From Polyangiaceae bacterium (GTDB lineage: Bacteria; Myxococcota_A; Polyangia; Polyangiales; Polyangiaceae), in NCBI GenBank assembly GCA_965222375.1, contig CBDCTZ010000013.1, positions 1 through 64,000 on the forward strand: DNA of 64,000 bases, in the 5' to 3' direction. The position numbers and the translations under genes were made by a program. The notes beneath the pieces were generated by a model. That model did not search any database, was not told the DNA's origin, and was given only the letters and a program-made list of their open reading frames with translations. Of the stretch, positions 3,051 through 46,406 are shown piece by piece. Positions within the stretch are counted from its first letter, which is position 1, and each line of letters starts with the position of its first letter.

Positions 3051-6000
3051 ATGGCCCGAATTCCCGAAGAAGAAATCGAGCGGTTAAAGGCCCAGATTTC
3101 GCTTCAGCGCCTGGCTGAAGCGAAGGGCATCAAGCTCAAGAAACACGGGTCGGACTTGATCGGGCTGTGCCCGTTTCACGACGACCGAGAGCCGAGCCTG
3201 GTGATCACACCCGACAAGAACCTCTGGCACTGCCTGGGAGCGTGTCAGGCGGGTGGCACGGTGATCGACTGGGTGATGAAGGCCGAGGGCCTGAGCTTTC
3301 GACACGCGGTGGAAGTGCTGCGTAAAGACCTTCCATCCTTAGCTGCAGAGTCGCCGAAGCGACGGCCGCCGAAGTACGGCACGGCAAGGAAGCTGCCGGT
3401 GGTGGGAGCACAGAGCGCGGACAACGACGAGCTGCTGCGCGAGGTTGTCGCCTACTACCACCAAGCGCTGTTGGAGAGCCCGGAGGCGTTGGCGTACTTG
3501 GAAAAGCGAGGCATTCGAGACGAGGAGGCCATCGAGCGCTTCCAGCTTGGCTTCTCGAACCGCACGCTAGGCTACCGTTTGCCAGCGAAGAACCGCCACC
3601 GGGGCGGAGAGCTACGGAGGCGGCTGGCGGAGGTCGGTGTGTACCGACAGAGCGGTCACGAGCACCTAAATGGCTCGCTGGTCATTCCGGTCTTCGACGC
3701 CGAGGGTCAGGTGGTGGAGATGTACGGGCGTAAGATCACGCCTCGACTGCGTCCGGGGACACCAATGCACCTGTACTTGCCCGGCCCCCATCGCGGCGTC
3801 TGGAACCTCTCCGGCATTGCAGACGCCCGGGAAGTGATTCTTTGCGAAAGCCTGATCGACGCGCTGACCTTCTGGTGCGCAGGCTATCGGAACGTGACGA
3901 CGGCCTACGGCGTGGAGGGCTTCACCGATGAGTTGCGCACAGCACTGACGACGCAAGATGTCGAGCGCGTGCTGATCGCATACGATCGGGACGACGCCGG
4001 CGAGCGGGCGGCGGACAAGCTGTCACGAGAGCTGGCGGAGCTGGCAGTGGGCAGCGCGCGGGTGCTGTTTCCGAAAGGCATGGACGCGAACGAGTACGCG
4101 CTGAAGGTGGGCCCAGCGGCACAGAGCTTGGGCCTTTCGCTGCGGCAGGCAGAGTGGATCAGCGAGGGCAAACCACGGCCGGCTGCAGCCGAGCCGACTG
4201 AGTCGATCGAGCGACAAGCCACACAGCCTGCCGGCGCCAACGAAGCCGAGGTGGTGATCGTTGCGAAGCAGCCGCCAGCAAGTCCGCCCCCACCCCATCC
4301 TTCCTTAGCCGCCAATCCGAGCGTCGAGCCCGAGGTGACGGGCGATGACCTGGTGTTTCGATTTGGCGATCGACGTTGGCGAGTGCGCGTGGCGTTGAAG
4401 GGTGGCCCGGAACAACTGCGCACGAACCTGCACATCTCGCGAGCGGGCGGGGCGTTTCACGTCGACACGGTGGAGCTGTACTCGGCGAGGCAGCGCGGCG
4501 TCTTCACAAAGGAAGCGGCGGCAGAGCTGGGCCTGGAAGAGCGTGTGGTCAAGCGTGAGCTGGGCGCCGTGCTCCTCAAGCTCGAGGAGCGGCAAGAAGC
4601 CGAGCGCAAGGCGGCTGAGGCTGAGGCGAAGCCAGCTCAGATGGGCGATGTGGCTCGGAAGGCAGCACTGGAGCTGCTGCGAGATCCGAAATTGGTGGAG
4701 CGGATCTTGGAAGACTTCGGGCGTTGCGGAGTGGTTGGCGAGCAAACGAACAAACTCGTCGGCTACTTAGCTGCCACCAGCCGGAAACTGGATGAGCCGC
4801 TGGCGGTGATCATCCAGAGCTCGAGCGCGGCGGGCAAGTCGTCGCTGATGGACGCGGTGCTGTGTCTGATGCCCGAGGAGGAGCGCGTGCAGTACTCAGC
4901 GATGACGGGGCAGAGCTTGTTTTACATGGGCGAGAGCGATCTGGCGCACAAGATCTTGGCCATCGTCGAGGAGGAGGGCGCCGAGCGAGCGAGCTACGCG
5001 CTGAAGCTGCTGCAGAGCGAGGGCGAGCTGACCATCGCGAGCACGGGCAAAGATCCAGCGACGGGACGGCTGGTGACGCAGGAGTACCGGGTGCAGGGGC
5101 CGGTGATGATCTTCTTGACGACGACGGCGATCGAGGTAGACGAAGAGCTGCTCAACCGCTGCATCGTGCTGACGGTGGACGAGGGGCGGGAGCAAACGCG
5201 AGCGATCCACGAGCGTCAGCGACAGCTACGGACGCTGGAGGGAGTGAAGACCCGGCACGAGCGGGCACGCCTGCTGGAACTGCACCAGAACGCTCAGCGC
5301 CTTTTGAGGCCGCTTTCGGTGGTCAATCCGTATGCGGAGCAGCTGACGTTTCCAGATCATCGAACACGGATGCGTCGAGATCACACGAAGTACCTGGGTC
5401 TGATCGAGACGATCGCGCTGCTGCACCAGTACCAGCGGCCGGTGCAGGAGGTGGAGCATCGGGGAGCGAAGCTGAGGTATGTGGAGGTGACGCGAGAGGA
5501 CATCGAACTCGCGAACCGCCTGACCCGCGAGGTGCTGGGCCGGAGCCTGGACGAGCTGCCGCCACAAACACGGCGCTTGCTCGGCCTCGTCGACGCGCTG
5601 GTCGCCCAGGAGACGAAGCGGCTCGGCTTGAACCGATGCGACTATCGATTTAGCCGCCGAGAGCTGCGGGAGCACAGCGGCTGGGGCGACACGCAGCTGA
5701 AGGTGCACCTGGGGCGGCTGGCGGAGCTGGAGTACGTGCTGGTGCATCGTGGGCGTCAGGGTCAAAGCTACGTGTACGAGCTGTGTTGGAGCAGCGAGGA
5801 GGGCGCAGGCACATCGCTTGCGGGTCTCGTCGACGCGGAAGGACTCGATGCGTCGAGTACGACGCACACTTCGCGGGGCTCAGAGGCAACTTCGCGGGGG
5901 GCAGACCCCAACTTCGCGGGGGTCGGTCGGCCCCTGGTCGGCCCCCGGTCGGGGGGTGGTCGGGGTGGTGAAAACCGGGCGGCGCAGGAGCAAAACGGCT

Positions 6001-6104
6001 CGAATGGTGATCGCAACGCCGCGAGCGGCAAAAACGCACGTCGCGGGAACGGTCTGTCACAATCGTCGTACGCAAGTGGCGTCGTACAAGCACGGGGGCG
6101 CTGA
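3051..6104 (+). CDS. CHC2 zinc finger-Toprim DNA primase fused to P-loop NTPase/helicase-like and C-terminal winged-helix-like domains
   Basis: CPFHDDREPS..WHCLGAC zinc finger; CESLIDA, AYDRDDAG and KGMDANE Toprim motifs; SSSAAGKSSL Walker A-like and ILAIVEEEG Walker B-like; AAGGAG RBS. Confidence 0.9.
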   Translation: MARIPEEEIERLKAQISLQRLAEAKGIKLKKHGSDLIGLCPFHDDREPSLVITPDKNLWHCLGACQAGGTVIDWVMKAEGLSFRHAVEVLRKDLPSLAAESPKRRPPKYGTARKLPVVGAQSADNDELLREVVAYYHQALLESPEALAYLEKRGIRDEEAIERFQLGFSNRTLGYRLPAKNRHRGGELRRRLAEVGVYRQSGHEHLNGSLVIPVFDAEGQVVEMYGRKITPRLRPGTPMHLYLPGPHRGVWNLSGIADAREVILCESLIDALTFWCAGYRNVTTAYGVEGFTDELRTALTTQDVERVLIAYDRDDAGERAADKLSRELAELAVGSARVLFPKGMDANEYALKVGPAAQSLGLSLRQAEWISEGKPRPAAAEPTESIERQATQPAGANEAEVVIVAKQPPASPPPPHPSLAANPSVEPEVTGDDLVFRFGDRRWRVRVALKGGPEQLRTNLHISRAGGAFHVDTVELYSARQRGVFTKEAAAELGLEERVVKRELGAVLLKLEERQEAERKAAEAEAKPAQMGDVARKAALELLRDPKLVERILEDFGRCGVVGEQTNKLVGYLAATSRKLDEPLAVIIQSSSAAGKSSLMDAVLCLMPEEERVQYSAMTGQSLFYMGESDLAHKILAIVEEEGAERASYALKLLQSEGELTIASTGKDPATGRLVTQEYRVQGPVMIFLTTTAIEVDEELLNRCIVLTVDEGREQTRAIHERQRQLRTLEGVKTRHERARLLELHQNAQRLLRPLSVVNPYAEQLTFPDHRTRMRRDHTKYLGLIETIALLHQYQRPVQEVEHRGAKLRYVEVTREDIELANRLTREVLGRSLDELPPQTRRLLGLVDALVAQETKRLGLNRCDYRFSRRELREHSGWGDTQLKVHLGRLAELEYVLVHRGRQGQSYVYELCWSSEEGAGTSLAGLVDAEGLDASSTTHTSRGSEATSRGADPNFAGVGRPLVGPRSGGGRGGENRAAQEQNGSNGDRNAASGKNARRGNGLSQSSYASGVVQARGR
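5868..5963 (+). repeat. Iteron-like phased direct repeats in primase 3' end
   Basis: ACTTCGCGGGG at 5868, 5889, 5911 then GGTCGG at 5925, 5936, 5947, 5958. Confidence 0.7.
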
Positions 6105-6107
6105 GCG

Positions 6108-7211
6108 ATGCCGATCAAGCGCGGCAACAAGCAGCCCCCGCGTCCGATTGGTGATCCAAACGAGCCGGACGGGTTTTGGATTTGGTCGCAGCGCTTCTTG
6201 CAGTGGCTGCAGACGCGGAACTACTCGGCGCACACGGTGGAGAGCCGTCAGATCGGGCTGAGGCGCTTCGTGCAGTGGTGCGAGGCCCGCAACCTGTATC
6301 GACCGTCGCAGCTCACGAAGCCGATGCTGGAGCGTTACCAGAGGCACCTGTACCTGCTGCGGCGCCCGGACGGAGGCCCGCAGATGTCGTTTCGGACGCA
6401 GCACGTGATGCTGACGGCGGTGCGGCGCTTCTTTCGGTGGATGGTGAAGCAAAACGCCCTGCCCTCGAACCCTGCGAGCGAGCTGGAGCTTCCACGGCTG
6501 CCGCATCGATTGCCCCGGGACGTGCTGAGCGCAGAAGAAGTCGAGGAAGTGCTGTCCCAGGTGAACACCGCCACGGCGCTCGGGGTGCGAGACCGGGCGA
6601 TTTTGGAGCTGATGTACTCGACGGGGATCCGTCGCAGCGAGGTGACTGGGCTCAGCCTGAGCGATTTGGACGTGGAGCGTGGGACGCTGATGGTGCGTGA
6701 GGGCAAGGGGCAGCGAGATCGGATGTTGCCGGTGGGAGAGCGAGCGCTGGCCTGGGCGAAGCGTTACATCCGCGACGTGCGCCCCGAGCTGATGGTGATG
6801 CCCGATCCCGGCGCCCTCTTCCTAACGAACATGGGCGAGGCGCTGTTGCCCCCCGGGCTGTCGCAGAACATCCGGCGTTACGTGCGCAAAGCTGGCAAGC
6901 GTGGAGCGTGTCACGTGTTTCGGCATGCGATGGCCACGCACATGCTCGAGGGAGGCGCCGACGTGCGCTACGTGCAGGAAATGCTGGGGCACACGTCGCT
7001 GGAATCGACGCAGGTGTACACGCGAGTGAGCATCCGCAAGCTCAAAGCGATCCACGCGGCGACGCACCCGACGGCGCAGCCAGAGCGCCCGCTGGCCAAG
7101 ACGGCGGGACGTCGCGAGCCATCACGGCCACCGAGGGCGTCGCAGACGGCTACGGCAGAGAAATGCTCCTCGCCCTTAGCCGCCACGCAGCGCCGCGAGG
7201 ACGACGAGTAG
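6108..7211 (+). CDS. XerC/XerD-like site-specific tyrosine recombinase
   Basis: Catalytic set R (GIRRSE), K (REGKG), HxxR (CHVFRH), LGH, Y (TQVYT); N-terminal SAM-like region. Confidence 0.93.
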   Translation: MPIKRGNKQPPRPIGDPNEPDGFWIWSQRFLQWLQTRNYSAHTVESRQIGLRRFVQWCEARNLYRPSQLTKPMLERYQRHLYLLRRPDGGPQMSFRTQHVMLTAVRRFFRWMVKQNALPSNPASELELPRLPHRLPRDVLSAEEVEEVLSQVNTATALGVRDRAILELMYSTGIRRSEVTGLSLSDLDVERGTLMVREGKGQRDRMLPVGERALAWAKRYIRDVRPELMVMPDPGALFLTNMGEALLPPGLSQNIRRYVRKAGKRGACHVFRHAMATHMLEGGADVRYVQEMLGHTSLESTQVYTRVSIRKLKAIHAATHPTAQPERPLAKTAGRREPSRPPRASQTATAEKCSSPLAATQRREDDE

Positions 7212-7241
7212 CGGTCGCCGCGTGCACGCAATTGCCGCTCC

Positions 7242-7473
7242 GCCCCCCAGCGCGAGTCGCTCGCTCGGCGGTGCGCATAAGGCAGCCTTATGCGCACCGC
7301 CCGGCGTCATGGGGCTTGCACACCTGCGGTGGGCGGGTCAGGGGCTACGCCCCTACGCCCCCGATGGTCGCTACCCCGAAAGGTTGTAGCTGACGTCTGG
7401 CAAGCCCCACGCCGCCGGGTGCCCTCGCTCGCTAAACATAACAAGAGAATTATGTTTCCTCGCGCTGGGGGGC
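7242..7473. other. Folded region with two dif-like palindromes (candidate recombination site or origin), copy 1
   Basis: 15-bp outer inverted repeat 7242-7256/7459-7473; 35-bp palindrome 7267-7301 containing GGTGCGCATAA arms; AAACATAA-N8-TTATGTTT at 7434-7457. Confidence 0.65.
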
Positions 7474-7655
7474 TGCGCTCCCCGGTGTGCGTCGCGTGCA
7501 CGCCCCACTGCACGCGCTGGTGCCTGCGATGACGTCCCGGTCAGCGCGGCGGCCCCGCCCCGCCGCGCTGACCTCGTGGCGTCGTGGTGCGCCCGCCCGC
7601 CCCCACGCGATGCGACCTTGTTGCAAGCGGCCCCGACAACGGGCGGCTAGGTGCT

Positions 7656-7895
7656 ATGCTCCCTCTCGTGAACGCGCTCAAAGCACATGTGAAGAACGGG
7701 CAGATTGTCCTCGACGAACCGGCGGAACTCACCAATGGCATGCCCGTGACCGTGTATCTGTGCAACTCCGAGGGCGATTCGCTGAGCGACAAGGAGCGCG
7801 CCGAGTTGCATCGCTCAATTGAACGCGGTCTCGGGCAATTGGAGCGCGGCGAAGTCGTCGACGCCGACGAAGTGCTCGCGGAACTCGAGCGCTGA
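7656..7895 (+). CDS. Putative type II antitoxin (AF2212/DUF104-like N-terminus)
   Basis: ALKAHVKNGQIVLDEPAEL..GMPVTV with acidic C-terminus GEVVDADEVLAEL; directly upstream of a RelE/ParE-like gene; start uncertain. Confidence 0.65.
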   Translation: MLPLVNALKAHVKNGQIVLDEPAELTNGMPVTVYLCNSEGDSLSDKERAELHRSIERGLGQLERGEVVDADEVLAELER

Positions 7896-7897
7896 AC

Positions 7898-8206
7898 GTG
7901 ATCGTCCACTTCTCCCGTGAAGCGCGGGAGGCCGCAAAAGACAAACGACAGTGGTGGGAGGCGCACCGGGACAAGGCGCCCGACCTCTTCCGTGAGGAAC
8001 TGCGTGCTGTCGTGGCGAGGTTGCGCACCTCTCCCACGGTCGGGGCGCAGCGCTACGTGCAAGTGCGAGGACAGCTAGTCTGGCGCGTGTTGATGCCGAA
8101 GACGCGGAACTTTGTGTACTTCCATGTTGACGAGGCCCGCAGCGTGGTCGGCGTCATCACGCTTTGGAATGCCATCGGCGAGAAGCAACCCGACTTCTCC
8201 ACTTAG
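7898..8206 (+). CDS. RelE/ParE-family toxin
   Basis: 102 aa, MIVHFSREA start, P.VG motif, RVLMPKTRNFVYF, V.VITLW end; tightly coupled to the antitoxin. Confidence 0.75.
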   Translation: MIVHFSREAREAAKDKRQWWEAHRDKAPDLFREELRAVVARLRTSPTVGAQRYVQVRGQLVWRVLMPKTRNFVYFHVDEARSVVGVITLWNAIGEKQPDFST

Positions 8207-8400
8207 CCGCCAGAATCACGTCTCAAAACGCGTCTGCGCACCCAGTCTCGCGTCGACGAAGAAGCGCGTGTAAGCTCAAACACGCGTCAGGGGATTTTCG
8301 CCGCAGAGCGGGACCTCGCATCAGGTCGTTGAGTTTCTAAGCTGCCGAACGCGCCCGACAAATCGGAGCTGCGCGTACGACGTTTGCGTCAGAGACCACT

Positions 8401-9351
8401 TTCTTTGGAAAGCGCTTCCTCTCGACCCATCTGAACAGGTGGGTGTCGCCTGATCCGCTCACGGTGCACGGGCTTGGGGCGGACCTGAACGTGTACGCGT
8501 ACGTCAGTGGGCAGGTGCTGAAGAACGTGGATCCCCTAGGCCTGGACCCCACGAACGCCAGCTCGGAGCAAGTCAGGCAGAACGCGGACGGCTCTGTCCA
8601 GACAGCGGAAGGTAGCAAGGTGTGGGTTCTCGCGGAAACGGAGATCCGGCCCAGAGACCCCACCAAGACCGCGAGCGGGGAGGATTGGGCACAGGCGTAC
8701 GGCGCTACATTGCGTCAGAACGAAGCCAAGGCCCCGGGGCCAAGTGAGACTGCGCCCAGCGCATCCTGGCTGGACCGACCGGCCGGTGGTGGGCACACGC
8801 CTCGTGAAATCATTGAGATGAACCCCTACATGGGCGGCCTGAGCAGCAAGGGATTTGGCCTGTTGGGCCGGGCTTTCAAGTGGGTGGGAACGAAGTTGGG
8901 CGCAGCCGATGACGTTGTCCAGGTTGCGACGGCAGGCGGGCCCAAGATCAACGTGTGGAGAATGTCTTCGAAGCCGGCGCCGAAGGGAGGAGCGGCGCCG
9001 AGTCCACGAGTTGCATTTGGCAAGAGCCGATGGGAGGCACTAGAGCCTGGGTCGAAGGCGTGCCAAAGCGGGTGTGAGACAGCTGCGCGAACGATTCAGC
9101 GAGCGATAGGGGGCGAGATTAGGACCATCAAGCCGCCCGGACCAGTGGATCGGTTGGTGCTGGGGCGTGTTAAGGATTCCAAGGGCGTTTTTCGGAATCC
9201 TGCAGGAGACAAAGCGAGAGGCTGGTCCACTCACCAGGTGGTGGTAAAGGACGGGCGCGTGTATGACAGGCTCACTGGGCCGAAAGGTCAATCGATCAAG
9301 AGCTACAAGGCACGTTGGGAGGAGGCAGATGCCATCCACTTCGGATTCTGA
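8401..9351 (+). CDS. Orphan Rhs C-terminal module with papain-fold (Tox-PL-like) toxin domain; no canonical start
   Basis: FFGKRFLSTHLNRWVSPDPL..NVYAYVSGQVLKNVDPLG Rhs core end; C-terminal GCETAA..I / HQVVVKDGRVYD suggests a Cys-His-Asp triad. Confidence 0.75.
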   Translation, partial: FFGKRFLSTHLNRWVSPDPLTVHGLGADLNVYAYVSGQVLKNVDPLGLDPTNASSEQVRQNADGSVQTAEGSKVWVLAETEIRPRDPTKTASGEDWAQAYGATLRQNEAKAPGPSETAPSASWLDRPAGGGHTPREIIEMNPYMGGLSSKGFGLLGRAFKWVGTKLGAADDVVQVATAGGPKINVWRMSSKPAPKGGAAPSPRVAFGKSRWEALEPGSKACQSGCETAARTIQRAIGGEIRTIKPPGPVDRLVLGRVKDSKGVFRNPAGDKARGWSTHQVVVKDGRVYDRLTGPKGQSIKSYKARWEEADAIHFGF

Positions 9352-9685
9352 CTTGAGCGATCTGTTCGAGTTGCTTGATGCAGTTCGAGCGCGACCCGGA
9401 ATGTACCTCGGGTGGTCTCCAGAACAGCGCGAAGCACAACTACGAACGCTCCAGGTGCTTGTGATCGGATACACCTTCGCGTTGGACGTACACGACATCA
9501 ACGAATGCGGCAGGGAATTTCTCGAAGCGTTCACCCGATTCGTTCACGAAAGAACCGGGTGGAGCATGTCTCGTGGTGTGGTCGAGGCAATACTGGACCA
9601 GGCGAAGGGAGAAGAAGCCTGGAGTACGTTTTGGCGCCTCTTCGACGAGTTTCGCGGTCCCCGACCCGCGGGTGAGTCCCCGTAG
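9329..9685 (+). CDS. Putative cognate immunity protein
   Basis: GGAGGAGG RBS then ATG overlapping the toxin 3' end; LLDAVRARPGMYLG motif; 118 aa. Confidence 0.7.
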   Translation: MPSTSDSDLSDLFELLDAVRARPGMYLGWSPEQREAQLRTLQVLVIGYTFALDVHDINECGREFLEAFTRFVHERTGWSMSRGVVEAILDQAKGEEAWSTFWRLFDEFRGPRPAGESP

Positions 9686-9697
9686 TGCTCACCCCCA

Positions 9698-9920
9698 GCC
9701 CCGCGGCGGACGCTCATGAGTCCGGCGCGGGGCGAGCCGTGGATCGCGCAAGCGCACCCTGGCGTCGACAGATTGAGTCTGGCTAATGCTTCGCTGGCCT
9801 GCGGCGCAGCGCCAAACAGCGACGGGGTCGGCCGCTCACCCCGAACTCCATCCGGGCATGGACGCCTTCGGCGCCGTCTGGCCCAGCGCTCGCATTAGCC
9901 AGCCAGTGACGTGGATGGTG
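9698..9920. other. Conserved structured non-coding segment, copy 2
   Basis: Identical to 23-245. Confidence 0.6.
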
Positions 9921-10444: not shown

Positions 10445-12128
10445 AGACCCGATCAAATTCTAGCGGCGGCGTCGAAATACAAAGCAAGTTCGATCGCTTA
10501 GAAGCCAGGATCGACGCGCCGGGCGTGTAGTGATCAAACGGGGTCAGGAGGACCCCATGGAGATCTGGAAGGCGCCGGTCGAGCTGTCGCGTGGTGAGAA
10601 GTTCATCGCAAAGCGATGTGCGAAACGCAGAGTATTCGTATTCCTGCGCGAGCTGCGACATAGGATTTTTGACGAAGAGATGCAGGCGAAGCTGACGGAG
10701 GCATATTCGCCCGTGGAGCGGGGGCGTGGTCGCGTCCCGCCTGCTCAACTCGGCCTTGCGATGTTGCTGCAGGCCGCGCTGCGTGTGCCCGACCACGAGG
10801 TGGTTGAGCTTACGTTGATGGATCGCCGCTGGCAAATGGTGCTCAACTGTGCGGGAATCGAAGTGCCGCTCTTCTCGCAAGGCACGTTTTACAACTTTCG
10901 CCAGCGCGTCATTGCGCATGGGCTCGACGAGCTGCTCTTCAACAAGACGGTCGAACTCGCACGCGAGACGGGCGGATTCAGTGCAACGCACCTGCGTGCT
11001 GCATTCGACGCCAGCCCACTATGGGGCGCGGGTCGCGTCGAGGACACCTTCAATCTCATCGGGCGCGCCTCGCTACACGTCGTTCGCACGGCAGCGCGGC
11101 GGCTCGGTCAACCCGTCGACAAGGTCGCGGCTGCTGCGGGGATCCCAGTACTCAACGCCACCAGCATCAAGACAGGGCTCGACATCGACTGGGACGACCC
11201 TGGGGCGCGCACCAAGGCGCTCGGTCGACTGCTCAAGCAGGTACAGTCACTCGGCCGCTTTCTCGAAAAAGAGCTGACGAAACCGCTGAAAGAAGCGCCG
11301 CTGGCCGGGCAGTGGGCACTGGTGGAAAAGCTCGTCTCGCAGGACACCGAGCCCGATCCAGACGGGGACGGAGGGAGCCGGATCACACGCGGCGTGGCGA
11401 AGGACCGACGCATTAGCGTGAGTGACCCCGACATGCGTCATGGCCGCAAGAGCAAGAAGAAACGCATCGACGGCTACAAGCGACACATCGCGATACAGCT
11501 CGATACGCCCGGCATCATCTGCGCCGTCGCGATCACCCCCGCGAATCGTCCTGAACGTGTCGCTTCGGCAGAATTACTCGAACAGTGCGGCTCCGTTTCA
11601 GAACTCTACATCGATCGAGGCTACCTTGGCGACGATGCGATCGAATCCCGTCGCGCCGAAGGAACAGAGGTTTTCTGCAAACCGTTTCCGTTGCGCAACG
11701 GCGGGCGCTTCACCAAGGCCGATTTCAAGCTCGATCTGGCTGCGGGAATCGCCCGTTGTCCCGAAGGCGTTGCGGTTAAAGCGAGCGCTGGCTCCGTCGC
11801 TCGCTTCCCAGCTGCCCGCTGCGATGTATGTCGCAGCCGCGACGACTGCACGCGCGCCGCCCCGGGGCGTGGCCGCAGCGTCACGCTACACCCCCATGAG
11901 CCCTTCCACATCCAGCTGCGCGAAAACGCCCGCACGCGCGAAGGCCGCGCCCGCCTTCGCAAGCGTACTGCCGTCGAACACAGCCTCGCGACCCTGCATA
12001 ACCGCCAAGGCGACCGTGCTCGCTACCGTGGTCAGCGCAACAACCTCTTCGACCTCCGCCGGCACGCTGCTCTCAGCAACCTGAGCGTTATCGATCAGTT
12101 GCGAGTTGCCGCTTAAGTGGTCAGGCCC
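10445..12128 (+). mobile_element. Insertion sequence, IS1182/IS5-like, copy 2
   Basis: CTAG at 10441-10444 and 12129-12132; same ends as copy 1. Confidence 0.75.
10557..12116 (+). CDS. Intact DDE transposase (IS1182/IS5-like)
   Basis: Continuous ORF; AFDASP, SDPDMRHGRKS..GYKRHI, YIDRGY, RTAVEHSL motifs and Cys cluster CPEG..CDVCRSRDDCT. Confidence 0.88.
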   Translation: MEIWKAPVELSRGEKFIAKRCAKRRVFVFLRELRHRIFDEEMQAKLTEAYSPVERGRGRVPPAQLGLAMLLQAALRVPDHEVVELTLMDRRWQMVLNCAGIEVPLFSQGTFYNFRQRVIAHGLDELLFNKTVELARETGGFSATHLRAAFDASPLWGAGRVEDTFNLIGRASLHVVRTAARRLGQPVDKVAAAAGIPVLNATSIKTGLDIDWDDPGARTKALGRLLKQVQSLGRFLEKELTKPLKEAPLAGQWALVEKLVSQDTEPDPDGDGGSRITRGVAKDRRISVSDPDMRHGRKSKKKRIDGYKRHIAIQLDTPGIICAVAITPANRPERVASAELLEQCGSVSELYIDRGYLGDDAIESRRAEGTEVFCKPFPLRNGGRFTKADFKLDLAAGIARCPEGVAVKASAGSVARFPAARCDVCRSRDDCTRAAPGRGRSVTLHPHEPFHIQLRENARTREGRARLRKRTAVEHSLATLHNRQGDRARYRGQRNNLFDLRRHAALSNLSVIDQLRVAA

Positions 12129-16883: not shown

Positions 16884-16913
16884 CGGTCGCCGCGTGCACG
16901 CAATTGCCGCTCC

Positions 16914-17145
16914 GCCCCCCAGCGCGAGTCGCTCGCTCGGCGGTGCGCATAAGGCAGCCTTATGCGCACCGCCCGGCGTCATGGGGCTTGCACACCTGCG
17001 GTGGGCGGGTCAGGGGCTACGCCCCTACGCCCCCGATGGTCGCTACCCCGAAAGGTTGTAGCTGACGTCTGGCAAGCCCCACGCCGCCGGGTGCCCTCGC
17101 TCGCTAAACATAACAAGAGAATTATGTTTCCTCGCGCTGGGGGGC
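16914..17145. other. Folded region with dif-like palindromes, copy 2
   Basis: Identical to 7242-7473. Confidence 0.65.
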
Positions 17146-17327
17146 TGCGCTCCCCGGTGTGCGTCGCGTGCACGCCCCACTGCACGCGCTGGTGCCTGCG
17201 ATGACGTCCCGGTCAGCGCGGCGGCCCCGCCCCGCCGCGCTGACCTCGTGGCGTCGTGGTGCGCCCGCCCGCCCCCACGCGATGCGACCTTGTTGCAAGC
17301 GGCCCCGACAACGGGCGGCTAGGTGCT

Positions 17328-17567
17328 ATGCTCCCTCTCGTGAACGCGCTCAAAGCACATGTGAAGAACGGGCAGATTGTCCTCGACGAACCGGCGGAAC
17401 TCACCAATGGCATGCCCGTGACCGTGTATCTGTGCAACTCCGAGGGCGATTCGCTGAGCGACAAGGAGCGCGCCGAGTTGCATCGCTCAATTGAACGCGG
17501 TCTCGGGCAATTGGAGCGCGGCGAAGTCGTCGACGCCGACGAAGTGCTCGCGGAACTCGAGCGCTGA
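17328..17567 (+). CDS. Putative type II antitoxin
   Basis: Identical to 7656..7895. Confidence 0.65.
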   Translation: MLPLVNALKAHVKNGQIVLDEPAELTNGMPVTVYLCNSEGDSLSDKERAELHRSIERGLGQLERGEVVDADEVLAELER

Positions 17568-24555: not shown

Positions 24556-24585
24556 CGGTCGGCGCTGGGACACAATTGCCGCTCC

Positions 24586-24766
24586 GCCCCCCGGCGCGAG
24601 TCGCTCGCTCGGCGGTGCGCATAATGCTGCATTATGCGCACCGCCCGGCGTCATGGGGCTTGCAACGCTGAGCTCGACGCGGCGGCTCGCTAGCAAGCCC
24701 CTCGCCGCCGGGTGCCCTCGCTCGCTAAACATAACAAGGGAATTATGTTTCCTCGCGCCGGGGGGC
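24586..24766. other. Folded region with dif-like palindromes, copy 3
   Basis: Outer inverted repeat 24586-24600/24752-24766; palindrome 24611-24645; AAACATAA-N8-TTATGTTT 24727-24750; compensatory changes relative to copy 1. Confidence 0.65.
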
Positions 24767-24974
24767 TGCGCTCCACAGTTGGCGGCGTGGTGCGAGTCAC
24801 GATGTACGACGCCGGCGCATCGCGTGCACCGTCCCGGCGAACGCGGCGGCCCCGCCCCGCCGCGCTCGCCTCATGGCGTCGTGGAACGGACCCACCCGCC
24901 CCTCGCGGTGCGGTCCGGCCTGCGTGGGTCCCTCCCACGCAGGCCTCAGTGCGTCCATTACCCCTCGCTGCGCG

Positions 24975-27407: not shown

Positions 27408-27653
27408 GTCGGAGGCTCGCATGCGAAGGTCGAAACTGTGCGGTGTATTGCGCCAGCGACTTGTTCACCCAGAAAACCGCGCAATTGTGAGCACAACGTG
27501 ACTGGAATTTCGGACTCTGATCGCGCTCCACGCTGCAGCAGGCATTCGTGGAAGGACGCGTTCGAGCGTGGCAGTACGCGTCCAGACGCAAGATCCCAAA
27601 TCGCAAACGCACGAGTGCCTCGATGCATGGCGAAACAAAACGCATTGCGCGAT

Positions 27654-29009
27654 TCAAGCGGCGTCGCGGAGCGAGACGATAGGCAAGTGGTTGCGGCCTT
27701 GGACGCGCCCGGTCACGAGCTGCAAGCCCGCAACGCGCTGGGCGGGGTCGCCTCGCGGGAGCGGAACGCCCGCGCGAGGCTGCCAGCGCGGCAAGTCACG
27801 CGCAGGCGTGCGCCCATCACGAAACTCCGCAGGGGTAGCGCCACCGAGAGCCATGTGCGGCCGATGCTCATGATACCACTGTACGTAGGCAGCGAGCTCG
27901 GCGCGCATCTTCGGCAAGGAGAGGATCAAGACCGGAAGTCTCCAGAGCATTTCGTCTTTGAGAGAGCGAAAGAAGCGCTCGATGATGGCGATGCTACCGC
28001 TCTGGCCGATGGCGCCGAAGCGCGGTTTGACGCCACGGCGCTTGCACCAAGCCTTGTACTTCTTGGCAAACTGCGGTCCCCGATCGGTGACGATGTGTTT
28101 GGGCGCGGCGCCGGCATTGCGGCGAGCCTTTTCGAGCAAGGAGCACACTTGGTTGGCGGAGGGCTGAGACAGGTACAGTCGCCAAGCCACGACGGAGCGA
28201 GAGAAGTGATCGAGCACGACGCCGATCCAGAAACAAAAGGGCCAGGCTTGTTTCAGCGAATGCGGGACCCAGGAAACCCACCAACCCGAGACTCTTGGCA
28301 GGAGAGACAGGTCGACGTGCCAGAGGTGATGAGGATAGCGAGCAGTCACAACGCGAGGGGTGGTCGCGTCGGTCTCGGTTTCGCCAACACCCGGGTCGCC
28401 AGTAGGCCGGCCTGGCTCGCCCGGAGTCGGTTGCGATGGAGACTTTTCCTTCGAGATCCGGCCTACAGTCGACGCAGCCAGATGCAGGCCAGCGCGAGCG
28501 AGGATGTTTGCGATGCGTTTGACACCCAGGCAAGGAAAGGTGACGCGCAGCGCGCGGACGGTCTCCCGGACGAAGTCCGGGAAGCGATTGACGGGCTCGC
28601 GCATTGCCAACAGCGCATCCGGTCCGTCCTCGTCGAGGCGCTTCATCCAACGAGCAACGGTCTGCGGAGTGACCAGGAACACGCTGGCCGTCCGTGCGAG
28701 AGTCCAGCCCACGGAGCAGCGCAACAAGACGATGGCAAGACGCTCGGCAGGCGGATACTGCGGCCTGCGACTGGGCTCGATGAGCGCGAGGCGGACAGAA
28801 AGGATGCGTATGATCTCCTGGAGCTGAGCAACCTTGGAGACGGCAATGTCGCGCTCGGCGGCGAGACAGACGCGGTTGATGCGACTGTTGAGGCACCAGG
28901 TGCGCACGTGGGTCAAGACGAAGTGAGCCTGTGCGATGGCGTGTTGCACGGCGGTCTTGGTGTGCTCAGGCCAGCAATCCGGCACGGGCACGTTGAAGGG
29001 ATTGGGCAT
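27654..29009 (-). CDS. Integrase-core (rve) DDE transposase with N-terminal HTH; element ~27444-29050, ends uncertain
   Basis: LWHVDLS, VVLDHFSR, IVTDRGPQF, IERFFRSLKDE, WYHEHRPH motifs. Confidence 0.85.
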   Translation of the reverse strand: MPNPFNVPVPDCWPEHTKTAVQHAIAQAHFVLTHVRTWCLNSRINRVCLAAERDIAVSKVAQLQEIIRILSVRLALIEPSRRPQYPPAERLAIVLLRCSVGWTLARTASVFLVTPQTVARWMKRLDEDGPDALLAMREPVNRFPDFVRETVRALRVTFPCLGVKRIANILARAGLHLAASTVGRISKEKSPSQPTPGEPGRPTGDPGVGETETDATTPRVVTARYPHHLWHVDLSLLPRVSGWWVSWVPHSLKQAWPFCFWIGVVLDHFSRSVVAWRLYLSQPSANQVCSLLEKARRNAGAAPKHIVTDRGPQFAKKYKAWCKRRGVKPRFGAIGQSGSIAIIERFFRSLKDEMLWRLPVLILSLPKMRAELAAYVQWYHEHRPHMALGGATPAEFRDGRTPARDLPRWQPRAGVPLPRGDPAQRVAGLQLVTGRVQGRNHLPIVSLRDAA

Positions 29010-29233
29010 GCATCAAAGTATCGCCAGGTCGTGTCTGGCGCAGTCATTGTTTGTGCCAACGGGCGTTCGAGTTTCTGCGCGTCCGCGCAAGATCAAAAGA
29101 CCTGCGGACCCAACGGTTTGATACAATCATCGGCATCGAGCACTCGACACCGCTCACGCAAACGCGGTTGCTCTGTGACAACTCAATAAGGCAGTCCCTG
29201 CGGCACGGTAGTGCCGCAGGGAAGCGGCTGCCA

Positions 29234-29876: not shown

Positions 29877-30851
29877 ATGAAGACGCCGCACGACGACTTC
29901 TTTCACTTGGTGTTTTCGGAACCAGAAAACGCCGTCGGTGAGCTGAAACACTTGCTGCCACCAGAGGTCACCAAGCGCATCGACTGGTCAACGCTGCAAA
30001 AGCTATCGGTAGACTTCATCGACGAGGAGTTTTCGAAGCGGCGAGCCGACGTGGCCTTTTCGGTCAAGCTCGACGGGCGACAGGTCGTGCTCTACCTGCT
30101 TTTGGAACACCAGAGCACGTCAGACAACCTGATGGGCTTTCGCCTGCTGTCGTACATGGTCCGGCTCTGGGACGAGTATCTTGAGGCGCAGCGCAAAGCG
30201 AAGCGCAAGACGGAGCGCTTGCCCGCCATCATCCCGATGGTGGTCCACCACAGCAAGGGCGGTTGGAAAGCTCCACGGCAGTTTCACGAGCTGCTGGACT
30301 TGGAGCCCGAGACCTTGAAGCTGCTCCGGCCGCTGGTGCCGCGCTTCGAGTACTTGCTGGACGACCTGTCGGCAGCTCGCTCCGAGGAGCTCAAGTCGCG
30401 GGTGATGACGGCGCTAGGCCGGCTGACGCTGCTGAGCTTCAGCCAAGCGCGCAAACAAGTGGATCTAATGCCGAAGTTGCTGGCCTGGCAGGAGCTGTTG
30501 CTGGAGGCCAGCACGGCCCCCAACGGGGTAGCGGCATTGGCGGCGCTGGTGCGCTATATTCTGCAGACCAGCGAAACGAAACCCGAAGACACCCGGCAGC
30601 TGTTTCGGCAACTTGGCCCAAGGCTGGAGGAAGCATTCATGACTGGAGCACAGATTCTCACGCAGGAAGCACGAGCCGAAGGCAAAGCCGAAGGCAAAGC
30701 CGAAATCGTGCTCAAACAGCTCATTCTGAAGTTTGGGACTCTCTCTGCGGAGCAGACTTCGCGAGTGCAGAGCAGCTCCATCGAAGAGCTGGAACGTTAC
30801 GCGGAGCGCGTGATCACCGTCGACTCTCTGGACGACGTCTTCGCTGGCTAG
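29877..30851 (+). CDS. Rpn-family recombination-promoting nuclease / putative transposase
   Basis: PHDDFF, RRADVAFSV, YLLLEHQS, RLLSYM..W, LPAIIPMVVHH and AEGKAEGKAE repeat. Confidence 0.9.
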   Translation: MKTPHDDFFHLVFSEPENAVGELKHLLPPEVTKRIDWSTLQKLSVDFIDEEFSKRRADVAFSVKLDGRQVVLYLLLEHQSTSDNLMGFRLLSYMVRLWDEYLEAQRKAKRKTERLPAIIPMVVHHSKGGWKAPRQFHELLDLEPETLKLLRPLVPRFEYLLDDLSAARSEELKSRVMTALGRLTLLSFSQARKQVDLMPKLLAWQELLLEASTAPNGVAALAALVRYILQTSETKPEDTRQLFRQLGPRLEEAFMTGAQILTQEARAEGKAEGKAEIVLKQLILKFGTLSAEQTSRVQSSSIEELERYAERVITVDSLDDVFAG

Positions 30852-31161: not shown

Positions 31162-34100
31162 ATGGACGTCAACTTCGACGGCCTAGTGGACGTCGTGGTG
31201 ACGACGGGGACGGAGGTGCAGACATTCTTCGCACTGGGGCGCTATCCGGGTGGGGATGGGCAATTCGGGAGCGCGGTGCGCACCGGGCCAACGACGGCCA
31301 CCATATCGAACGAGCCTGTTCGGACGTGTGTTCCGTGGAGTGCCACGCCGGTGCGCTTCAGTGATCCGGACATCAAGCTCGCCGACATGAATGGCGATGG
31401 GATCCAGGACATCGTCAGAATAAGGAAAGGGGACATTCGCTACTGGCCCGGGCGCGGCAATGGCTTCTGGGGCATGGGTAAGCGAGATGATTGTCCTGGT
31501 GGGACGTTCGGCTCGGGGCGGCACATCATCATGGGCACGAGTCCCCAGTACTCGGACATTCAAGGCGAGTCGCTGCGGCTCGACGACGTCAACGGCGACG
31601 GCCTGTCGGACTTGGTGCAGGTGCGATTCACGGATGTGGACGTCTGGCTCAACATCGACGGCGAAGGCTGGACCGGGCGGCACGTGATCGCAGGCACGCC
31701 GGCGAGTCCGAGCTATGCGAATCGGGTCAGGCTGGTCGACATCAACGGCAGCGGGACCCGGGACATCCTGTGGGGCAACGGGGGCAAGTATCAGTATCTC
31801 GACTTGCAGGGCGGCGAGCGCCCGCATGTGCTGACCCGAGTCGACAACGGCCTCGGCAAGAGCACGCACCTGGAATACTCGACTTCGACCGCGGAGATGC
31901 TCGCAGCGGAAGCAGCCGGGGACGCTTGGTCGTCCAAGATGCCCACGGTGGCGCACGTCGTGAAGCGCGTGACCGAGACGGACAACCACGCGGTCGCCGG
32001 CAAGCCCGCTGGGACCTATGTGACGGAGTACACGTATCGCGACCCCGTCTTCGAAGGGCGGCAAAGGGAATTCCGCGGCTTTGCCCGCGCGAGCGCAAAG
32101 CGCATTGGTGACGACAACAGTCCGACGGACATCACGGAAACGCAGTTCCTGCTCGGAGAGTGCGTCGATGAGACGGCTCCCGGTGCCGGGACGGACAATG
32201 GCATCGCAGATTGCAGCGTACCCGAGCGCTGGCGCGACAATCCGCGAGAGGCGCTCAAGGGCTTGCCCTTCGTGACGGAGAAGCGCGACGAGAGCGGGCG
32301 CGTGCTGTCCACGGAGACGATGGCGTATCGGCTTCGCAAGCTGTACACGGGCCTCGATGGCCGCGAGGTGCGCCACGCCTTCGAGACGAGCAAGACGTCG
32401 TATCTGTACGACACCGACAACTTCGTCCCCGCCACCGAGACCGTCACCCTGCCGCGAGTACAAGTCGAGCGCGCGCCCGCGCCAAACGGCGACGCCACGG
32501 TGCCACCTGCGAGCAACGCGGATTGGACGATCGAAAACGGCAGCGTGACGCTCAAGTCGGCGGCGGGCCGCGCGCGGATTCAGAGCACCAGCCAAGTGGA
32601 CGTCTTTGGCAATCGGCGCAAGGCGATCGCGCTCGGCTGCACCCAAGGCTGCCCCGGCGGCACCGACGAGGAGATCACGACGGTCACGGAGCCCGCTCGA
32701 CCCGCAGGCGATCCGACCGGCTGGCTGTGGCGCACAGTACGGACCTATGTTGACGGCAACGTCTACTTCAATGGGATCTTGAAAGAGACGCTCACGGCGT
32801 ATTCCCCCGAAGGCGTTCCGCTGACGAGCACGCAGAAGCTCAGTGGCTTCGAGGCACTCGATCGCTTCCATGCAACCGGGGGCACCGTCGCGCCGCCGCC
32901 AGCAGACGCTTCGAGCGGCGCCGACATCGTTTGGACGACTCAGTACGATTCCTTTGGCAATGTAATCAAGGAGTTCGGGCCGAATGGCCGCTGCCGCGAA
33001 GTGGACTACGACACTTCGTATTCGCAGCTGCCCATCGAGGAGCGCATGCGCACCAACGGCTGCATGTCGGCGGCGCTGACCACGAAGGTCGAAGAATATG
33101 ATCGCGGCTTGGCGCTCGCAACGGACGTCCGCGACATGCAAGCGCAGCCCACGGTCGTGACCTACGACGGCTTCGGGCGACTGGTCACGCTCACGAGACC
33201 CCATCCCGATGCACCGGGGATCCCTTCGCCGGTGCCCAGCGTGATCATCGAGTACTTCCTGCCGCCCGATCTGGGAGCACCGGGGCAAGTCTTCCACTCG
33301 ATCATGCACACGCAAACGCAAGACGCGGAGACGATCGCCGACGGCTCGGAATATCTCGAAAGCTGGAGCTACGTCGACGGCTTCGGGCGCACGTTGGTGA
33401 CGTTGCAAGAGGCCGACCCAACCGAGGACGGCGCGCCCTGGATCGCCAGCGGGCAAGTCGCCTTCGACAACAAGGGCACCGTCGAGCGCAAGCACTTGGA
33501 GAGCTTCTACAGCGGAACACCGAAGGTGTTTCCGTTTGGAGCGGTGCCGAGCGCTCCGTATGGGTCGCAGCGGTACGACGCGTTTGGGCGGCAGAAGTTC
33601 ACGACGGACTTGGATGGGACGATCACGTTGTATTCGGCCTATCACGCGCTTTCGACGGACATGTGGGATGCGGCAGACCTGGAAGCCGGTCCGCACGCCG
33701 GGACGTTTGCGAGTGAGACGAAGGACGGGCACGGACGCACGGCGTTTACCACCGAGCGGTTCCACGAGGGGTCAACCCTTCGAGAAAGGATCACGCGCAC
33801 CACGTACCTGCCAACAAATGAGCCACAAGTGATCAAGCGCGAGCTGGCGGGCTCGAGCGAAAGCGTGACCCGCTGGATGCGCTACGACTCGCAAGCCCGG
33901 ATGGTGCTCAACGTCGAGCCCAACACGACCAAGGGCTACACCGCAGACCCGACGCAAAACCCAACGACGCTCAAAGCCTGGCGCTACGCCTACAACGACG
34001 CTGGCGATCTCGTTGGCACAAGTGATGCGCGCGGATGCGGCATCAACTTCGATTATGACGGACTCGGGCGCTTGCTCAGTGAGGACTACTCGCCGTGCGA

Positions 34101-42419: not shown

Positions 42420-42449
42420 CGGTCGGCGCTGGGACACAATTGCCGCTCC

Positions 42450-42630
42450 GCCCCCCGGCGCGAGTCGCTCGCTCGGCGGTGCGCATAATGCTGCATTATG
42501 CGCACCGCCCGGCGTCATGGGGCTTGCAACGCTGAGCTCGACGCGGCGGCTCGCTAGCAAGCCCCTCGCCGCCGGGTGCCCTCGCTCGCTAAACATAACA
42601 AGGGAATTATGTTTCCTCGCGCCGGGGGGC
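42450..42630. other. Folded region with dif-like palindromes, copy 4
   Basis: Identical to 24586-24766. Confidence 0.65.
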
Positions 42631-42838
42631 TGCGCTCCACAGTTGGCGGCGTGGTGCGAGTCACGATGTACGACGCCGGCGCATCGCGTGCACCGTCCCG
42701 GCGAACGCGGCGGCCCCGCCCCGCCGCGCTCGCCTCATGGCGTCGTGGAACGGACCCACCCGCCCCTCGCGGTGCGGTCCGGCCTGCGTGGGTCCCTCCC
42801 ACGCAGGCCTCAGTGCGTCCATTACCCCTCGCTGCGCG

Positions 42839-45275: not shown

Positions 45276-45533
45276 TTTGTTGAAGACGAAGCCGTCCTCC
45301 CACGGCTAGGTGGCTACAACTGGTGTGTTGCGTCAGCGAGTTGTTCACCCAGAAAACCGCGCAATTGTGAGCACAACGTGACTGGAATTTCGGACTCTGA
45401 TCGCGCTCCACGCTGCAGCAGGCATTCGTGGAAGGAAGCGTTCGAGCGTGGCAGTACGCGTCCAGAGGTAAGATCCCAAATCGCAAACGCACGAGTGCCT
45501 CGATGCATGGCGAAACAAAACGCATTGCGCGAT

Positions 45534-46253: not shown

Positions 46254-46406
46254 TGTCACGGCTCGGCCTATGAGATCAGGCCTGGCTCGGCCAAGCGAAC
46301 CCACCTGAGTTCGGCCAAACAAACCGCGCCTGGCTCGGCCAAACAAACCGCGGCGGGGGCCGAGAGGCACTGGACAAATGTAGAGCATGGCGATGGTCTG
46401 GCTGCC

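Follow-up and report, generated by a model that had tools for sequence, protein, structure and literature searches.

The stretch of DNA analysed here (hereafter, the window) comprises 64,000 nucleotides (nt) from a Polyangiaceae bacterium, positions 1 to 64,000 of the forward strand of contig CBDCTZ010000013.1 (GenBank assembly GCA_965222375.1), and carries a repeated element in which genes for a DnaG-type primase and an Xer-type tyrosine recombinase are followed by a long fold-back, at 7237-7478 in the first copy, and then by an orphan Rhs toxin tip. This fold-back is maintained by selection as a fold. According to our analysis, it may be a folded single-stranded site of the element's own Xer-type recombinase, used in an extrachromosomal phase and possibly together with the host XerD, a reading which we favour while giving it somewhat less than an even chance. 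It builds on the structure of the fold-back, the covariation of its stems, the likeness of its arms to dif, its linkage to the recombinase gene and a CTX-like arrangement of the site in relatives, from which we infer that the site would be bound by protein, in the single-stranded state and with one particular strand folded, and that it would be recombined. The fold-back of the first copy and the further copies in the window are made up as follows.

7237-7256, + strand: 5' strand of the outer, closing stem P1 (core 7242-7256, GCCCCCCAGCGCGAG), pairing with 7459-7478.
7257-7265, + strand: first linker repeat, TCGCTCGCT, unpaired and directly 5' of hairpin A.
7267-7301, + strand: hairpin (site) A, a 35-nt perfect palindrome, GGCGGTGCGCATAAGGC-A-GCCTTATGCGCACCGCC, with centre base 7284.
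7300-7419, + strand: P3, with stem 7300-7319 pairing with 7400-7419 (GTCATGGGGCTTGC ... GCAAGCCCCACGCC) and a variable loop at 7320-7399.
7425-7433, + strand: second linker repeat, TCGCTCGCT, directly 5' of hairpin B.
7434-7457, + strand: hairpin (site) B, AAACATAA-CAAGAGAA-TTATGTTT, two XerD-type 8-nt arms around an 8-nt non-palindromic loop.
7459-7478, + strand: 3' strand of P1 (core 7459-7473, CTCGCGCTGGGGGGC), pairing with 7237-7256.
16909-17150, + strand: fold-back copy 2, identical to copy 1.
24581-24771, + strand: fold-back copy 3, with a short P3 loop, spacer TGCTGCA and a P1 G-C pair replacing A-T.
42445-42635, + strand: fold-back copy 4, the same as copy 3 across the fold-back.

Site A consists of two XerC-type 11-nt arms, GGTGCGCATAA and TTATGCGCACC, around the 7-nt palindromic spacer GGCAGCC; we take GGTGCGCATAA to be the XerC arm of Escherichia coli. 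The two 20-nt strands of P1 (7237-7256 and 7459-7478) are 90% complementary with 202 nt between them, the inner-stem part of P3 pairs 7311-7319 with 7400-7408, and conserved T.C and A.C mismatches lie at the P3 base. The predicted shape is a four-way junction of P1, hairpin A, P3 and hairpin B, in which only 0-2 nt separate the helices at the A-P3 and B-P1 boundaries and two longer single-stranded linkers hold the TCGCTCGCT repeats, conserved as TCGCT(N)CGCT in the alignment of versions; in such a model, the P2/P3 and P4/P1 boundaries could stack. Hairpin B is the sole AT-rich stretch of the region. Folded as single-stranded DNA (ssDNA), the + strand reaches -84.1 kcal/mol, against -56.8 +/- 3.8 kcal/mol for shuffled sequences (z -7.2; 0 of 200 as good), the - strand -93.1 kcal/mol (z -9.1), and copy 3 has a z of -6.6. 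A preliminary description of this DNA had placed palindrome A, site B, the TCGCTCGCT repeats and the outer and inner stems where we find them, and it had listed for copies 3 and 4 the spacer TGCTGCA, an outer-stem A..T pair turned into G..C and a loop of different length; all of this was confirmed, the P3 loop of copies 3 and 4 being ~50 nt shorter than that of copies 1 and 2. Copies 1 and 2 being identical over this stretch, and likewise copies 3 and 4, the window gives just two independent versions.

The genome of origin (G000; 10.56 Mb in 16 contigs, 63.7% G+C) holds eight copies of the fold-back, four on contig C13, two on C9 and two on C5, which amount to four distinct versions and are all intact. 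The block from P1 to P1 is almost invariant among them, the adjoining genes fall to 60-90% identity, and the fold-back is the most conserved non-coding part of the module. In a mosaic analysis of seven of the eight copies, from -5.2 to +2.5 kb, identity jumped element-wide and no fold-back-specific breakpoint appeared. When 6000-9700 was compared with the Logan contigs of four public sequencing runs, the differences and joints all matched paralogous copies, including A>T at 7284. We rejected a repeat of the miniature inverted-repeat transposable element or repetitive extragenic palindrome type, since the eight copies are all at the same place of the same element; that the terminal stems vary freely with their complementarity kept contradicts it as well.

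By blastn, the fold-back was detected in 11 of 61 related genomes (G000 included) and in 9 of the 36 belonging to the same family. A 17-base pattern made of linker 2 and hairpin B occurred in 4 of 401 genomes sampled phylum-wide, all of them of the source family, and matched at least 123 stretches in metagenomes; these yielded a set of 80 loci, 25 of which had a closing stem according to our filter, the remaining ones being chance matches, truncated or variant. A blastn search of the fold-back against 72,556 plasmid records gave no match, and phage records contained distant recombinases only (identity ≤33%). The ~50-nt extra part of the long P3 loop (window 7340-7390, GGGGCTACGCCCCTACGCCCCCGATGG...) is a dispersed repeat in the related genome G008, with at least 12 matches, and also occurs in the P3 loops of the metagenome elements L091 and L118, which have different arms in hairpin A; this part may represent a small mobile insert favouring that loop. 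Metagenome locus L084 displays, directly after its recombinase gene, a short form consisting of P1, a fused linker (TCGCTCC followed by CCTCGCTCCGCT), hairpin B and P1, which we rejected as a product of recombination between A and B since it is a deletion between the two linker repeats.

Covariation was assessed in 32 distinct versions from the source genome, relatives and metagenomes, with the structure drawn from the window copy. Left out of the count were L098, for want of a hairpin A, and G033, because its P1 had been mis-parsed; L073 was kept though out of register in P1, where it counts against the structure. Paired cells made up 90.0% of the total, compared with 70.4 +/- 0.7% for shuffled partners and 37.5-44.0% for slid partners. 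The compensatory changes claimed in the preliminary description thereby extend across homologues: 36 of 54 pairs showed double-sided changes, and the covariation score (0.427 vs 0.118) was reached by none of 500 shuffles. By helix, such double-change pairs number 14 of 15 for P1 (94.9% of its cells paired), 8 of 14 for the arms of hairpin A, 11 of 16 for P3 and 3 of 9 for hairpin B, whose arms are almost invariant across the 32 sequences. RNAalifold, run on 12 sequences, predicted 55 pairs with compensatory change in 27. The two strands of P1, ~200 nt apart, were complementary at 11.4 of 12 positions to their own partners and at 4.7 of 12 to those of other elements, the corresponding values for hairpin A being 15.6 and 10.7 of 17. 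This covariation and own-partner matching lead us to conclude that selection acts on the fold as such; sequence is retained in the unpaired linkers and loops and changes in the stems.

The arms of both hairpins resemble dif. Across the whole genome, the pattern CATAA-N6-8-TTATG occurs at 17 sites, 16 of which are in the eight fold-backs; the other, AGTTCGCATAA-GATACA-TTATGTTAACT at C8:59718, sits at the cumulative GC-skew maximum of contig C8 (55-60 kb). Its arms are those of the Neisseria dif site in the portion of PMC10210955 consulted, and we take it, judging from its sequence and position, as the putative chromosomal dif. Compared with this host site, the likeness claimed for both palindromes holds: 9 of 11 positions of its XerC arm are shared by the arms of site A, and the first seven of eight bases of its XerD arm by that of site B, whose D arm is extended as TTATGTTAC in the G005 version and as TTATGTTAACT, an 11/11 match to dif, in that of G019. 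Hairpin A arms vary from element to element (CTTCCGATAAC, CACGGCTGATAA, CTTTCGCAGAAT) and in more distant versions diverge from the host dif (e.g., CACTTCGCCGAAG); genome G049 holds two different ones, CTTTCGCAGAAT and CACTTCGCCGAAG, so that they are not plain copies of the host dif. Hairpin B arms are constant, (A/G)ACATAA and TTATGT(C/T). Spacers measure 6-8 nt across 27 versions, and the sites have the layout of a core site, with two inverted arms around a 6-8-bp centre. Besides the eight element copies, the host encodes a XerD scoring above the cut-off, with 334.7 bits, and one more Xer, with 278 bits. Outside the window, at C8:59718-59830, the dif-like site is directly followed by a G+C-rich hairpin and an inverted XerD arm (TTATGTTAACTTTC ... 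GAAAGTTAGACATAA), which may be the scar of a dif-using element.

As for the strand that would fold, DNA parameters give the - strand the better fold in 32 of 34 sequences, and RNA parameters do so in 33 of the 34. We also counted non-Watson-Crick combinations at single positions flanked by Watson-Crick pairs: A.C on the + strand, which is G.T on the - strand, was found 38 times and G.T on the + strand 10 times, with 1594 comparable Watson-Crick positions. Of the 38 A.C events, 23 fall in the P3/variable-loop category (helix labels being rough), most of them at one conserved P3-base position, GTCAYGG / CCRCGCC. Within P1 and hairpin A the counts are 8 for A.C and 0 for G.T on the + strand, five of the former in P1 and three in hairpin A, two of these three coming from related sequences; the other six A.C and four G.T events were labelled P2 by our script and, by eye, lie outside hairpin A. 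Because the non-Watson-Crick positions are A.C on the + strand and G.T on the - strand, the count, small as it is, speaks for a folded bottom strand rather than a symmetric cruciform. The - strand is the G-rich chromosomal strand at two of three loci (C13 and C9, not C5), which is uninformative.

The recombinase gene ends just upstream of P1, and the element's gene order occurs four times in the window. In its first copy, the genes are as follows.

2519-2959, - strand: divergent helix-turn-helix (HTH) repressor-like open reading frame (ORF) upstream of the primase gene; PHROG transcriptional repressor families, best 1.2e-8.
3051-6104, + strand: DnaG-type primase of 1017 amino acids (aa); Pfam Zn_ribbon_DnaG, DNAG_N and Toprim, TIGR01391 and PHROG DNA primase families.
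6108-7211, + strand: Xer-type tyrosine recombinase of 367 aa, with its stop codon 26 nt before P1.
8398-9351, + strand: orphan Rhs core-end fragment and toxin tip after the element body, identified by similarity to the full-length Rhs.

The recombinase matches Pfam PF00589 (1.1e-38) and the XerC-subfamily model NF002331 of NCBIfam (433 bits, cut-off 371), and it aligns with E. coli XerD (1a0p) over residues 32-316 with no large insertion. The long C-terminal part of the primase bears a Walker-A-like GKS motif, seen by eye, and is probably a helicase. The relatives described below from E. coli, Salmonella and Janthinobacterium have HTH genes in the corresponding place. Past the recombinase gene, the order is fold-back, 14-bp hairpin, variable small ORFs, a conserved stretch of 200 bp, and the Rhs core-end fragment with its tip, 8398-8546 being 79.6% identical to 35893-36044 of a full-length Rhs gene. 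By tblastn, a recombinase gene lies upstream on the same strand at 5 of 11 loci of the relatives and at 10 of 80 metagenome loci, the flanks of the latter extending just 450 nt.

Beyond the phylum, the primase was found by tblastn at 10 of 14 recombinase loci, with identities of 54-61% for the primase and 42-56% for the recombinase, and 243 plasmid records contain a relative of the primase, the match covering 80% or more of its length in 31 records. All contexts of the primase-recombinase relatives are polymorphic-toxin loci, as illustrated by the following, in which CDI stands for contact-dependent growth inhibition.

Ralstonia Po82: Rhs, the module, and an orphan core-end fragment.
Janthinobacterium: FG-GAP/Rhs, HTH, the module, and tips with immunity genes.
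Salmonella plasmid: the module adjoining a two-partner secretion gene.
E. coli cdiBA (CDI) locus: the module with VENN-motif orphans.
E. coli rhs locus: the module between ansP and ydcC.

The E. coli relatives are present in 60 of 5426 complete genomes, and on an 11,289-bp plasmid of Lonsdalea populi, recorded as circular, the module is accompanied by two tip-immunity pairs and an Rhs core-end motif. With the HTH-primase-recombinase module standing between successive orphan tips in Rhs and CdiA loci of many phyla, as in window 1-44874, in L182, L183, L185 and L186 (E. coli) and in L184, L055, L056, L181 and L180, it looks like a vehicle for C-terminal displacement. A related fold-back follows the recombinase gene or the tips in L041, L045, L046, L049, the Lonsdalea and Janthinobacterium plasmids and both units of E. 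coli E2; L043 carries it in part, L042 and L044 have it as variants, and by eye none was found in L048, L050-L052 and L054. Its order is GGGGTAAAT, a small variable hairpin and a long hairpin. The 3' half of the long hairpin is a full site of C arm, 6 nt and D arm, e.g., GGTTCGCATAA-CACCTG-TTATGTCT or, in E. coli, AGTTCGCACAA-TCCGCA-TTATGTCT, and its 5' half is an imperfect inverse of this, the central region measuring 7-9 nt. Pairing involves the D arms and the D-side centre, with compensatory CAGG/CCTG, CCGA/TCGG and GCGG/CCGC; the C side is bulged, and then the C arms pair. Over eight sequences, 12 of the 28 pairs of this hairpin show compensatory change. The source class differs in that its D arms still close against P1 while its C arms form a separate perfect palindrome; a P3-like hairpin, GTCACGGSGCTTGC...GCAAGCCSCGCGCC (GCTTGC...GCAAGC), is common to both classes. 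In E. coli and Lonsdalea, the fold-back is embedded in ~1 kb of non-coding DNA full of hairpins, which has 59-74% G+C over most of its length in Lonsdalea and is G+C-rich, by eye only, in E. coli.

Both the attP(+) site of CTX phages and the attC sites of integrons work as folded single strands. In CTX, attP1 and attP2 are inversely oriented dif-like sites that pair in ssDNA; as given in the part of PMC4246890 consulted, their central regions measure 12 (attP1) and 5-7 bp (attP2), they lie 90 nt apart, and they are functional only when folded. Our fold-backs share with CTX attP(+) the dif-like XerC- and XerD-type arms and intrastrand pairing over ~150-240 nt, and the partly paired centres of the relatives, 7-9 nt in the 5' half and 6 nt in the 3' half, recall attP1 and attP2. 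The analogy with CTX attP drawn in the preliminary description gains weight from the relatives, in which two complete dif-like sites stand in inverse orientation and pair mutually. In the source class the pairing is real too, but the arms are split into a C/C and a D/D hairpin of a four-way junction, each palindrome being self-paired. Unlike CTX and the integrative mobile elements exploiting Xer (IMEX), the element brings an Xer-type recombinase of its own along with a primase, and therefore it is not an IMEX; moreover, its copies are on C13, C9 and C5, none at the host dif, and its site remains intact and internal after insertion.

With integron attC, the fold-back has in common that structure is conserved above sequence, that one strand is implied to fold, that the terminal loop is variable, that mismatched bases are conserved (T.C and A.C at the P3 base), that one site follows each unit of a tandem array and that the enzyme is closely related to XerC/D. 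It differs from attC in that each unit has its own recombinase and primase, the arms are dif-like instead of R and L boxes, and unit indels end in the Rhs core end and not in the fold-back. Single-recombinase Xer systems offer a further comparison: as far as the consulted portion of PMC5357621 describes them, XerS/difSL and XerH/difH likewise have a site beside an Xer-family gene, with arms more symmetric than those of dif, and they serve chromosomal dimer resolution at one double-stranded terminus site, whereas here two sites are contained within covarying stems, on a mobile replicon and in eight copies.

Several observations weigh against the fold-back being a recombination site. At the element ends in the window, no dif-like sequence is found at the chromosome junctions. 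In E. coli, E2 and EC77 differ by a 13.3-kb indel of two whole units, whose ends lie in a 67-nt repeat of Rhs core-end coding sequence (E2 11263-11329 aligns to both EC77 4000-4066 and 17374-17440) and not in the fold-back, which was therefore not used for the observed insertions. No fold-back was found beside the intact primase and recombinase genes of Ralstonia Po82 (20.9 kb), the Salmonella plasmid and the E. coli C11 CDI locus; conversely, G012, G033 and G049b have no recombinase gene within 1.1-1.5 kb upstream of the fold-back, and neither hairpin A nor P3 is present in L084. In the source class, A is a C/C and B a D/D site instead of each combining one C and one D arm, we know of no Xer reaction on such sites, and the hybrid C/D sites expected from recombination between A and B are absent from the genome. 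Of the earlier proposal of a substrate for the element's recombinase or a host Xer, the fold, the covariation, the dif-like arms and the internal position stand, and its difficulty is this pair of C/C and D/D hairpins, which corresponds to no known Xer substrate. In 25 of the 27 unique versions, the complementarity of hairpin A runs on into the very middle of the spacer, 13 of these having a centre of odd length with one unpaired base; folding cannot select such central palindromy because the central bases cannot pair. The loops of hairpin B, read by eye, are self-complementary in 1 of 22. The recombinase is without the inserted helix of IntI type, and IntI4 (2a3v) matches its residues 245-311 only. 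Lastly, the lower energy of the - strand may partly derive from its G-richness, and the strand bias, which rests on few events, could be mutational.

The internal position asserted for the fold-back, away from the Rhs junction, is borne out both by the junctions in the window, where the right end of the element abuts Rhs core-end fragments starting at different codons, and by the E2/EC77 indel ends. Units are thus gained and lost by recombination in conserved pre-toxin sequence, whereby the old tip becomes an orphan and the fold-back stays intact and internal. C-terminal displacement at Rhs loci and arrays of orphan toxins are said to have been described by Jackson in 2009 and by Koskiniemi in 2014. 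What we observe agrees with that pattern in that the Rhs core end receives a new tip and immunity gene and the previous tip is orphaned together with a short core-end fragment; it differs in the primase-recombinase vehicle between the orphans, of which the literature we searched contains no description. The words integrase, primase, recombinase and transposase are all absent from PMC3150448, and the consulted part of Zhang 2012 (PMC3482391) notes XerC/D genes beside polyimmunity loci and says nothing further of them. Within two Rhs core-end fragments of E. coli (L182, 19140-19180 and 12120-12150), the codons for LNLYAYAPNP read GGCGCATAA-GCATAT-AAGTTTAA on the opposite strand, an XerC-type arm and 6-nt spacer located in the same repeat that bounds the unit indels. 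This may be due to chance, and no counterpart was seen in the core-end fragments of the window.

If the fold-back is a folded site of the element's recombinase, it would most likely be the bottom strand, complementary to the coding strand of the recombinase, that folds. Hairpin A would then offer a duplex XerC-type arm; since the arms of this hairpin differ between elements, the Xer paralogue encoded by the element probably recognises it. Hairpin B would offer a duplex XerD-type arm which, its arms being constant, may be read by the same enzyme or by the host XerD; P1 and P3 would be the scaffold holding both hairpins in the four-way junction. The element itself would be a plasmid-like shuttle made of HTH repressor, primase with its probable helicase part, recombinase, fold-back and an orphan Rhs tip with its immunity gene, entering Rhs or CdiA genes through recombination within the conserved pre-toxin sequence, in which case the fold-back is not the chromosomal attachment junction. 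The reaction at the fold-back is placed in a circular, replicating phase because the chromosomal junctions lie elsewhere, and it might consist in monomerising, resolving or re-closing circle copies, or in recombining a single-stranded copy with a resident double-stranded site. A more specific proposal, a 'split dif' that would be a novel type of single-stranded substrate for recombination, would have the element's XerC paralogue on A and the host XerD (or the same enzyme) on B, joined by the four-way junction; single strands would be cut and rejoined, so that a circle could be copied out of Rhs or CDI arrays, or a single-stranded copy captured, with the chromosomal junction unopened. We regard this proposal as possible but doubtful.

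In the main rival reading, which we deem unlikely, the fold-back would instead serve the element's primase as a site of single-strand initiation or an origin of replication. In phage G4 oriC, ssiA and ssiB of RSF1010 and the single-strand origins (sso) of plasmids, hairpins are clustered in a strand-specific way beside a primase gene and display conserved motifs that stay unpaired, a description that fits the fold-back also. Here, the unpaired motifs exposed for priming or helicase loading would be TCGCTCGCT on the + strand and AGCGAGCGA, 3' of each hairpin, on the - strand, and palindrome A could be a binding site for a double hexamer, with AT-rich hairpin B as the melting region. The same operon encodes the 1017-aa primase with its Walker-A-like motif, and the 11,289-bp circular plasmid bears the same primase, recombinase and fold-back, by which the module is a replicon and must have an origin; the structure is strand-biased, the unpaired linkers and loops are conserved while the stems vary, hairpin B is the only AT-rich stretch, and the E. 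coli and Lonsdalea sites lie within the hairpin-rich ~1 kb. However, the dif-arm matches in sequence, 6-8-nt spacing and inverted arrangement are far above chance, are unneeded for priming and are not known from G4 oriC, ssi and sso sites. In addition, the position of the site in relatives tracks the recombinase or toxin cassettes and not the primase, the linker motif is present in two copies only, there are no iterons, and related units with an intact primase yielded no fold-back. A dual role, as recombination site and origin, is possible.

Less probable still, to our judgement, are sites A and B as purely double-stranded lox- or dif-like sites, acting in dimer resolution or in inversion of the P3 segment, with the fold as a by-product of their symmetry. 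Plasmids often pair a recombinase with its own resolution site, as in Cre/loxP and ResD/rfsF, and inverted 8-11-bp arms around a 6-8-bp spacer are the canonical core layout of tyrosine recombinases. The palindromy of hairpin A through its centre is likewise a property of the duplex, and the centre base of odd spacers is exchanged for its complement between versions with otherwise identical arms, A/T in the source genome and C/G in L133 vs L123, two cases that are suggestive only. On this account, though, there is no explanation for P1 and P3 strands that stand 80-200 nt apart and vary in sequence yet remain complementary (double changes in 14 of 15 and 11 of 16 pairs), for the asymmetry of A.C and G.T, or for the pairing between the central regions of the two halves in relatives, and symmetric spacers lack the directionality that resolution needs.

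A transcribed terminator or RNA was the alternative named in the preliminary description, and it found no support. That the fold-back acts as a structured RNA, be it the 3' untranslated region of the recombinase mRNA or an antisense small RNA, regulating the operon or priming replication, seems to us highly improbable. The fold-back does begin 26 nt past the stop codon on the operon strand, its covariation is of a kind seen in RNA, and the better fold of the - strand would suit an antisense transcript. Nevertheless, no Rfam family matched window 6000-9000 on either strand at E up to 1, the E. coli relative returned only a sub-threshold JUMPstart (18.4 bits, gathering score 35), and a scan of both strands over 6900-7900 returned 0 promoter-like and 0 terminator-like sites. 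Moreover, wobble pairs are far rarer than in structured RNAs, the arms are conserved to the base as in protein-binding DNA, and central palindromy is not an RNA feature. Given the rarity of wobble pairs and the lack of Rfam matches and of promoter- or terminator-like sites in these scans, we read the fold-back as a DNA structure.

Protelomerases form covalently closed hairpin ends at telRL, and the least likely of the explanations considered makes palindrome A such a hairpin-end resolution site, staggered cuts at the arm-spacer borders giving closed ends whose replication would restore a perfect palindrome: central palindromy in 25 of 27 versions, with even and odd centres, complement-flipped centres in both comparable pairs with identical arms, and a primase and a tyrosine-recombinase-fold enzyme beside the palindrome, as in linear plasmid prophages of N15 type, are in its favour, but the recombinase is a plain 367-aa Xer-type enzyme without protelomerase-like extra domains, the related plasmid is recorded as circular, the relatives have an imperfect, looped hairpin at this place, and two complement flips are weak evidence.

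Other features of the region stand apart from the fold-back. At 7539-7573, 60 nt past it, there is a perfect 14-bp hairpin, GGTCAGCGCGGCGG-N7-CCGCCGCGCTGACC, whose inner part is conserved in copies 3 and 4 and after which no T run occurs. Copies 1 and 2 only have an IS5-like DDE transposase gene between the left end and the HTH gene (856-2444 and 10530-12116), split into two ORFs in copy 1 and intact, with 528 aa, in copy 2. Unit 4 comes after the full-length Rhs gene (31162-36753) and the ORF downstream of it, and precedes an orphan tip that carries an Ntox8 domain. After two orphan tips there is a Mu-like transposase gene (27438-29189 and 45378-48002; 94-98% identical over ~930 nt), the 874-aa copy of which has rve and Mu-transposase C-terminal domains, and a YhgA-like transposase gene lies at 29877-30851.

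In the literature that we searched, which comprised openly accessible articles in their main text, the module in Rhs and CDI loci and both fold-backs are undescribed. C-terminal displacement is known as a pattern, and its vehicle was not found in this accessible literature; here, a repressor-primase-Xer module separates the displaced tips, and it spans hosts from the 10.6-Mb source genome to Ralstonia, Janthinobacterium, Salmonella plasmids and E. coli. To our knowledge, recombination of folded ssDNA has so far been known from CTX-type phages and integrons. If the fold-back is a recombination substrate, this kind of recombination would be extended to a new architecture and to an element-borne recombinase; if it is an origin, it would define the replicon. 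In both cases, toxin-tip exchange becomes accessible to experiment in a tractable host, as the relatives in commensal E. coli make the site directly testable. Should the doubtful 'split dif' be true, the element would be an autonomous, replicating counterpart of the integron cassette for polymorphic toxins.

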